Below, one piece after another: positions 3,913 to 4,532 of a DNA stretch of 64,000 bases (within the stretch, counting starts at the first letter, position 1; each line of letters begins with the position of its first letter). The position numbers were made by a program, and so were the translations under genes. This DNA is from Escherichia coli (GTDB lineage Bacteria; Pseudomonadota; Gammaproteobacteria; Enterobacterales; Enterobacteriaceae). The stretch is taken from the NCBI RefSeq assembly GCF_046105845.1, contig NZ_CP151004.1, one strand, 5' to 3'. The notes beneath the pieces are model-generated. The model was not told the origin of the DNA and made no database searches. It saw only the letters and a program-made list of their open reading frames with translations.

Positions 3913-4532
3913 GGCACGGGCTGCTGGCGCTGATTTGCTGGCTGTGTTGTGTTGTTGCCCATAGCGAAATGCTGAATGTCGAACAATCCGGGCTGTTTCG
4001 CGCCTGGTTTGTACGCATTGCACAGGAACAGCTCCGCCAGGGGCCAAGTCCGCGCTGGTATCAGCAGGATTGTGCGGGCCTGGTGCGATTTTCGGCGAAC
4101 GAGGCGCTGAAAATTCACGACAGCAAATGGCTAAAAAGTAACGGCATAGCAAGTCAGTATTTGCCGCCTGAAATGACGCTAACACCTGAACAGCGTCAAC
4201 TGGCGCAAAACTGGAATCAGGGGAACGGAAAAACCGGCCCCTATGTGACCGCGATTAATTTGATTCAATATAACAGCCAGTTCATTGGCCAGGACATAAA
4301 CCAGGCGCTGCCTGGCGATATGATTTTTTTCGATCAGGGCGATGCCCAGCACTTAATGGTCTGGATGGGGCGTTACGTCATCTACCACACCGGAAGCGCC
4401 ACGAAAACTGACAACGGAATGCGCGCAGTCAGTCTGCAACAACTTATGACATGGAAGGACACCCGATGGATACCCAACGATTCCAATCCCAATTTCATTG
4501 GCATTTATCGTTTAAATTTTCTGGCGCGATAG
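3909..4532 (+). CDS. yfaT: DUF1175-family secreted protein (207 aa); NlpC/P60-like Cys/His motifs
   Basis: ORF track 3882..4532; ATG at 3909 overlaps the yfaA stop (ATGA); signal-peptide-like N-terminus [19 protein letters not shown]; motifs DCAGLV and GDMIFF...QHLMVW. Confidence 0.8.

Follow-up and report, generated by a model that had tools for sequence, protein, structure and literature searches.

The mag operon of Pseudomonas aeruginosa is the described system closest to the locus considered here. In it magB corresponds to COG4685/DUF2138, magC to COG3234/DUF1175, magD to an alpha-2-macroglobulin (A2M), magE to COG5445/DUF2300, and both magA and magF to COG4676/DUF2135 (PMC3735191, PMC5764988). 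In 2025 the operon was reported to protect P. aeruginosa against VgrG3 and Tae1, two peptidoglycan-targeting effectors of type VI secretion systems (T6SS) (PMC12663445). A crystal structure of MagC is available (PDB 7BK8; Zouhir et al. 2021, FEBS Lett, doi 10.1002/1873-3468.14148, PMID 34115884), and the title of that paper presents MagC as an NlpC/P60-like protein that interacts with both the Mag complex and peptidoglycan. In a classification of papain-like peptidases published in 2023, DUF1175 (PF06672) falls in the NlpC/P60/CHAP/amidase group (PMC10318531). Here we describe yfaT (3909-4532, plus strand), a gene found in a 64-kb stretch of Escherichia coli DNA (contig NZ_CP151004.1; hereafter "the window"), which encodes a 207-aa protein of the DUF1175/MagC family, predicted to be periplasmic and to adopt the NlpC/P60 fold. 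YfaT is the E. coli orthologue of P. aeruginosa MagC (PA4490), the two proteins being 71-75% identical. The NlpC/P60 reading of YfaT is already known, and on this point our analysis adds nothing to the 2021 structure paper and the 2023 classification.

The reading that we favour, with a probability of roughly 80%, is that YfaT is the MagC orthologue, a secreted protein consisting of a single domain of NlpC/P60 fold, which serves as a peptidoglycan-directed module of an A2M complex and is probably a latent or regulated enzyme.

Sequence and predicted fold of YfaT

The assignment of yfaT agrees between its open reading frame (ORF) and translation, its Pfam and PDB matches, and the RefSeq annotation. 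Its ATG at 3909 and its stop codon coincide with those that RefSeq gives for yfaT in an E. coli genome of 98.9% identity. Two minus-strand ORFs overlapping the gene (3837-4118 and 3907-4185) are without support, and the plus-strand gene accounts for the region. YfaT matches PF06672 (DUF1175/MagC) over residues 20-205 with 197.2 bits against a cut-off of 27 (E-value = 3.6e-58), and its top PDB match is MagC (7bk8_A, E-value = 9e-103, residues 21-206). The RefSeq name of the E. coli protein is only "DUF1175 domain-containing protein", and no NCBIfam model matches YfaT or the products of two downstream genes, YfaS and YfaQ. Precomputed Pfam labels on public contigs give PF06672 as "MagC". We set aside a mention of DUF1175 in PMC12828279 as irrelevant or erroneous.

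The original prediction, made from the letters of the window, had noticed in YfaT the sequence DCAGLV with Cys55 at codon 4071-4073, followed about 90 residues later by His148 at codon 4350-4352, and had likened this arrangement to the Cys...His signature of NlpC/P60 peptidases. Translation of 3909-4532 reproduces both codons exactly, with Cys55 in the context QQDCAGLV and a measured spacing of 93 residues. Cys55 of the motif D54-C55-A-G-L-V (4068-4085, plus strand) is the predicted nucleophile and sits at the N-terminal end of helix 55-66. Residues 135-154 (4311-4370, plus strand) hold the strand with the GD motif and the predicted catalytic His148; besides their translation, conservation and an alignment with the GDLVFF...HVGIY segment of NlpC/P60 structures support this assignment. 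Conservation and alignment likewise point to His160 (codon 4386-4388) as the predicted third residue of the triad, within Y159-H160-T161-G162 (4383-4394, plus strand) at the end of strand 156-160. His148 is followed by LMVWMG; the motif after the predicted catalytic histidine is H-x-M in YfaT, whereas it is H-[VI]-G in canonical NlpC/P60 proteins. The pattern DC[SA]G[LF] occurs a single time in the six-frame translation of the whole window, and a canonical NlpC/P60 gene, sought across the 64 kb as an internal comparator, was not found. Residues 1 to about 19, as read from the sequence, resemble a Sec signal peptide, a segment in which the structure model shows a low-confidence helix (3-14). 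The N-terminus agrees with the listing of MagC with a signal peptide in Table 2 of PMC3735191.

We modelled YfaT with AlphaFold2 (AF2), using as alignment the family sample A1 described below. The model has a mean predicted local distance difference test score (pLDDT) of 93.9 and a predicted template modelling score (pTM) of 0.88. It shows a papain-like alpha+beta fold, in which the nucleophile helix packs on an antiparallel sheet. Cys55, within the D-C-[SA]-G sequence of the superfamily (D54-C55-A-G-L in YfaT), opens helix 55-66. His148 starts strand 147-152, which comes after the strand carrying the GD[LIV][LIV]FF-type motif, and His160, the polar third residue, ends the next strand (156-160); these two histidine strands are adjacent. 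As modelled, Cys55, His148 and His160 occupy the canonical NlpC/P60 positions of nucleophile, general base and third residue, respectively.

The nearest structure to the model is that of MagC (7bk8_A, score 29.5), with a root-mean-square deviation of 1.6 A over 192 residues at 71% identity. It is followed by the gamma-D-glutamyl-L-diamino acid endopeptidase 2evr (12.1), LytE (10.7), CwlO (10.5), RipB (10.1), MepS (9.7), SagA (9.5) and the bacterial transglutaminase Tgl (7c9j, 8.0), with CHAP domains and T6SS amidase effectors lower in the list. A Foldseek search gave the same first match (7bk8, E-value = 3e-27, template modelling score 0.87-0.93), then 2evr, MepS and 2hbw. Structure prediction had been proposed as a check of the resemblance, and its outcome bears the resemblance out. 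Canonical NlpC/P60 domains lack two elements of YfaT, an N-terminal helix (24-44) and about 40 residues (approximately 66-114) inserted between the cysteine helix and the sheet. These additions explain why Cys and His are 93 residues apart in YfaT, a spacing that is about 50 in MepS.

The relationship is also detectable at the sequence level. YfaT aligns with the Pfam NLPC_P60 model (PF00877) over residues 48-162 in one stretch, from the cysteine through the third triad residue (E-value = 4.4e-4). A phmmer search against 1.84 billion cluster representatives retrieved 402 relatives of YfaT, from which we assembled the alignment A1, comprising YfaT and 103 relatives of at least 190 aa (n = 104) that are 26-68% identical to YfaT and less than 50% identical to each other. 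The NLPC_P60 model is matched at E-value <= 0.01 by 77 of these 104 sequences (best E-value = 2.9e-10). When the A1 profile was compared with PDB sequences, MagC came first (E-value = 1e-71), followed by NlpC/P60 peptidoglycan hydrolases including Clostridioides difficile Acd33800 and CD630_03720, CwlO, RipA/RipB and SagA. In these alignments DCAGL falls on DCSGL, and H-x-M-I...Y-H-T-G falls on H-V-G-I-Y...Y-H-A-G of NlpC/P60 autolysins, so that the His160 motif is paired with the "YHAG" third histidine of the C. difficile enzymes. The likeness noticed in the original prediction is thus genuine, given the matches of the relatives and the NlpC/P60-like structure of the orthologue. As it scores below the PF00877 gathering threshold, YfaT belongs to a Pfam family separate from that of the canonical NlpC/P60 endopeptidases (MEROPS C40, PF00877; MepS/Spr, LytE, CwlO, RipA/RipB and AvPCP/NpPCP, 2hbw/2evr), and represents a sister family within the NlpC/P60 superfamily, outside PF00877 proper.

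The more distant DUF1175 proteins (P0047-P0150) are mostly 280-380 aa long and carry an N-terminal extension of 100-150 residues that is absent from YfaT. A D-x-x-x-D-G-x-P-D motif lies within this extension; the bacterial TSP3 repeat is matched by three of the proteins. One protein of 532 aa (P0131; contig L008, 10001-11599) exhibits a BNR/sortilin-like beta-propeller ahead of its DUF1175 domain.

Conservation of the predicted catalytic triad

Only 21 of the 207 positions of YfaT are at least 90% conserved in A1 (W33, D54, C55, R60, L67, H70, W74, L118, N122, G136, D137, H148, M150, Y159, H160, T161, G162, N193, F196, G198 and R201). They include all three triad positions, which by our own calculation would happen by chance with a probability of about 9e-4. 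Conservation of the Cys/His pair had been the other check proposed for the original prediction, and Cys55 and His148 both pass the 90% level in these 104 diverse sequences. Of 102 aligned sequences, 101 have D54 and 101 have C55, and H148 is found in 102 of 103; H160 is present in 99 of 104 and replaced by aspartate in three, and G162 is invariant.

Classified by triad, the sample consists of 96 Cys-His-His sequences, two Cys-His-Asp sequences (P0125 and P0138), one hybrid with Cys-His-Glu, and five other deviants. On inspection, the five (P0015, P0018, P0032, P0093 and P0133) appear to be truncated or frameshifted gene calls. The hybrid, P0027 (213 aa), follows DUF1175 in its N-terminal two-thirds up to GDLLFF and then continues as a canonical NlpC/P60 C-terminal part (HVGMYIGDGHFIEA; HVGMYIGDGHFIEAAG). 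This protein must be a natural intermediate linking DUF1175 and NlpC/P60, or else an assembly chimera. Every apparently intact DUF1175 sequence among the 104 retains a complete triad. Such family-wide conservation is hard to reconcile with a dead enzyme.

A further feature of this part of the papain-like peptidases is an interaction of the GD-motif aspartate with an arginine on beta-strand 5 (PMC10318531). In YfaT, Arg201 (4509-4511, plus strand) lies on the last beta-strand (196-202) and is the probable partner of the GD-motif Asp137, a predicted contact matching the feature of the cluster.

The yfa operon and the macroglobulin partners of DUF1175

The E. coli genes yfaA-yfaT-yfaS-yfaQ-yfaP correspond to magB-C-D-E-F. 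The first gene of the P. aeruginosa operon, magA (the second DUF2135 gene), is missing from the E. coli operon, which instead has gyrA upstream; the five yfa genes lie on the plus strand. The 3' end of gyrA (72-2075), at the start of the window, precedes yfaA (2182-3912), the DUF2138 gene equivalent to magB (Pfam E-value = 6.7e-288; also in RefSeq). The stop codon of yfaA and the start codon of yfaT overlap as ATGA (3909-3912), which suggests that the DUF2138 and DUF1175 genes are translationally coupled.

Downstream of yfaT, yfaS (4466-9070, within an ORF at 4451-9070) encodes the MagD equivalent, a bacterial A2M with Pfam domains MG2, A2M_BRD, A2M and bMG10. The sequence GGAAGGA (4453-4459) stands upstream of ATG 4466 with a 6-nt spacer, and with this start yfaS shares 67 nt with the 3' end of yfaT and its product begins with an apparent signal peptide (MDTQRF...). 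In a 98.9%-identical RefSeq genome the A2M gene is started at an in-frame GTG equivalent to window position 4556, with loss of the signal peptide. From these features the start of yfaS in its RefSeq relatives looks mis-set, ATG 4466 being the likely one. No CxEQ thioester motif was found in YfaS, which resembles MagD in this respect; by its sequence YfaS is classed as a type II bacterial A2M.

The operon continues with yfaQ (9071-10720), the DUF2300 gene equivalent to magE (Pfam E-value = 2e-90). Residues 312-374 of YfaQ (window about 10004-10192) score 26.7 bits against Pfam SpoIID, for which the gathering threshold is 23. The last gene is yfaP (10725-11501), a DUF2135 gene equivalent to magF/magA (Pfam E-value = 2.2e-18; also in RefSeq). 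At least 80% of the region 2100-11600 is present in 5,178 of 5,426 complete E. coli genomes. The region is found at 98.9% identity, with the same RefSeq genes, in complete E. coli chromosomes, and none of the 5,426 genomes exceeds this value; the lineage of the window is therefore not exactly represented among them.

The pairing of a macroglobulin gene with a gene for a peptidoglycan-directed partner has a parallel in the type I bacterial A2M YfhM/ECAM, which goes with PBP1C (pbpC). Budd et al. are said to have described this pairing of bacterial A2M with PBP1C in 2004. The partner of YfhM is a transglycosylase/transpeptidase, whereas the yfa operon provides an NlpC/P60-fold protein and the SpoIID-like YfaQ; moreover YfaS, unlike YfhM/ECAM, has no thioester. 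Pairing of A2M with a peptidoglycan-directed partner is also described in the introduction of PMC5764988.

We inspected the gene context of DUF1175 on contigs carrying five distant homologues, 30-40% identical to YfaT. An A2M gene lies directly downstream of the DUF1175 gene in four distant contig families (L002/L003, L004/L005, L007 and L008), and either overlaps it by a few bases or starts within a few bases of it. In the remaining contig (L006) the gene downstream is truncated after 730 aa; its N-terminus is like those of the A2Ms in the other families, and an A2M is probable. The A2Ms of all four confirmed families keep the thioester motif PYGC[TV]EQT (L003 1951-5631, L004 10638-15191, L005 2480-7123, L007 10786-15681 and L008 11596-16200). 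Judged from these sequences, the partnership of DUF1175 extends beyond the thioester-less "type II" A2Ms. As the distant partners keep their thioesters, the NlpC/P60-like partner predates the loss of the thioester and is not a substitute for it. On these grounds we dismissed the possibility that YfaT makes up for the thioester that YfaS lacks.

SpoIID genes occur near the DUF1175-A2M pairs on three of these contigs (L005 8044-9354, L007 16511-18736 and L008 16883-18193), one of them fused to a transpeptidase. These neighbours parallel the SpoIID-like segment of YfaQ. The conserved core of the system may thus consist of an NlpC/P60-like protein, an A2M and a SpoIID-like protein, that is, of two peptidoglycan-directed modules flanking a macroglobulin.

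A possible latent enzyme or peptidoglycan anchor

The gene yfaT lies immediately upstream of the thioester-less A2M gene yfaS and is apparently linked to it translationally. In the role that we consider most likely, YfaT would be the peptidoglycan-directed module of an A2M envelope complex. It would recognise the stem peptides of peptidoglycan, and thereby position the macroglobulin at the sacculus or regulate it there; it is probably also a latent or regulated cysteine peptidase or amidase acting on peptidoglycan peptides, perhaps activated by its partners. Several points weigh against this proposal. For YfaT, binding to peptidoglycan is an extrapolation from the Pseudomonas protein, to which it is 71-75% identical, and catalysis has not been demonstrated for any member of the DUF1175 family. 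The catalytic residues in the 2021 MagC structure are reportedly in an inactive conformation, and the structure paper is reported to propose that MagC anchors MagD to peptidoglycan. The 2023 classification, citing the structure paper, describes DUF1175 as "inactive" and "binding to peptidoglycan" (PMC10318531). Early pull-downs of the Mag complex did not detect MagC, nor did MagC and MagD assemble into a stable binary complex in vitro (PMC3735191, PMC5764988). The NLPC_P60 score of YfaT itself (20.6 bits) is below the gathering score of 23. The original prediction had further supposed that the operon pairs its macroglobulin, YfaS, with a candidate hydrolase of its own. The fold and the homology behind this idea hold, while the hydrolase part is not established and is, if anything, contradicted by the "inactive" label, although the conservation of the triad throughout the family speaks in its favour.

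According to the published view, the groove of YfaT/MagC only binds stem peptides, and the protein tethers or stabilises the A2M complex on the sacculus without turnover. This is a plausible alternative, though we would lean on it only tentatively. The wording of PMC10318531 speaks for it, and our model adds that the N-terminal helix and the 40-residue insertion could occlude the groove. A precedent is found in RipD (Rv1566c; PDB 4jxb, 4lj1), an NlpC/P60-fold protein proposed to be a non-cleaving binder of peptidoglycan; its structure 4jxb appears among our Foldseek matches under the title "a non-catalytic NlpC/p60 domain protein". RipD, however, has reportedly lost its catalytic residues, whereas the full triad persists in YfaT and in practically all of the DUF1175 family. 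A Cys-His-His/Asp/Glu triad together with D54 is kept by every apparently intact member of the sample, and a role restricted to binding gives no obvious reason to retain three residues at about 30% identity. A single crystal conformation of the isolated protein is, moreover, compatible with activation within the complex. Given that no apparently intact member of the family lacks the triad, we consider a latent or partner-activated activity somewhat more likely than a permanently dead domain. The idea that the motif is a chance resemblance in an unrelated fold could have drawn on the sub-threshold NLPC_P60 score and on a Cys-His spacing about twice the canonical one; it is refuted by the NlpC/P60 fold of both the orthologue's structure and the AF2 model, by the 77 relatives matching NLPC_P60, and by the near invariance of the triad.

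Two further possibilities give YfaT a substrate other than peptidoglycan, or another chemistry. It might be a dedicated protease processing YfaS/MagD, responsible for the conversion of the 165-kDa form into the 100-kDa form seen in Pseudomonas. The tight, conserved and overlapping yfaT-yfaS pair would suit such a function, as would the legend of Fig. 6 in PMC5764988, which has the 100-kDa form of MagD missing in magB and magC deletion backgrounds. According to the text of the same paper, MagD is not markedly affected by deletion of magC and occurs in its 165-kDa as well as its 100-kDa form; no stable MagC:MagD complex was obtained (PMC5764988), and the close structural neighbours of YfaT besides MagC are all peptidases of peptidoglycan stem peptides. 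We regard this function as improbable. The text of section 7 and the legend of Fig. 6 of PMC5764988 are in conflict on the MagD forms in the magC deletion. It is just as hard to credit that YfaT is a transglutaminase-like transamidase, covalently linking the A2M or a trapped target to peptidoglycan or protein and so supplying the lost thioester chemistry in trans. The similarity to transglutaminases is weak only, and the thioesters of the distant A2M partners contradict the part of a thioester substitute.

Returning to the peptidoglycan-directed module, a more specific version can be offered tentatively, at somewhat less than even odds. DUF1175/MagC/YfaT would be a genuine but latent Cys-His-His enzyme that becomes active only within the A2M envelope complex or when peptidoglycan is damaged, and it might trim or remodel stem peptides at sites attacked by peptidoglycan-targeting T6SS effectors or lysins. 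The ancestral and widespread module would have combined an NlpC/P60-like protein, a thioester-containing A2M and a SpoIID-like enzyme, from which the thioester-less form of E. coli and Pseudomonas would be derived.

In practical terms, YfaT can be named as the MagC orthologue, the NlpC/P60-fold component in the envelope complex of a type II alpha-2-macroglobulin. The question of enzyme or mere anchor for this subunit has a direct bearing on how the Mag system protects against T6SS attack, and the invariance of the triad across the family is a concrete reason to re-test the "inactive" label in the context of the complex.
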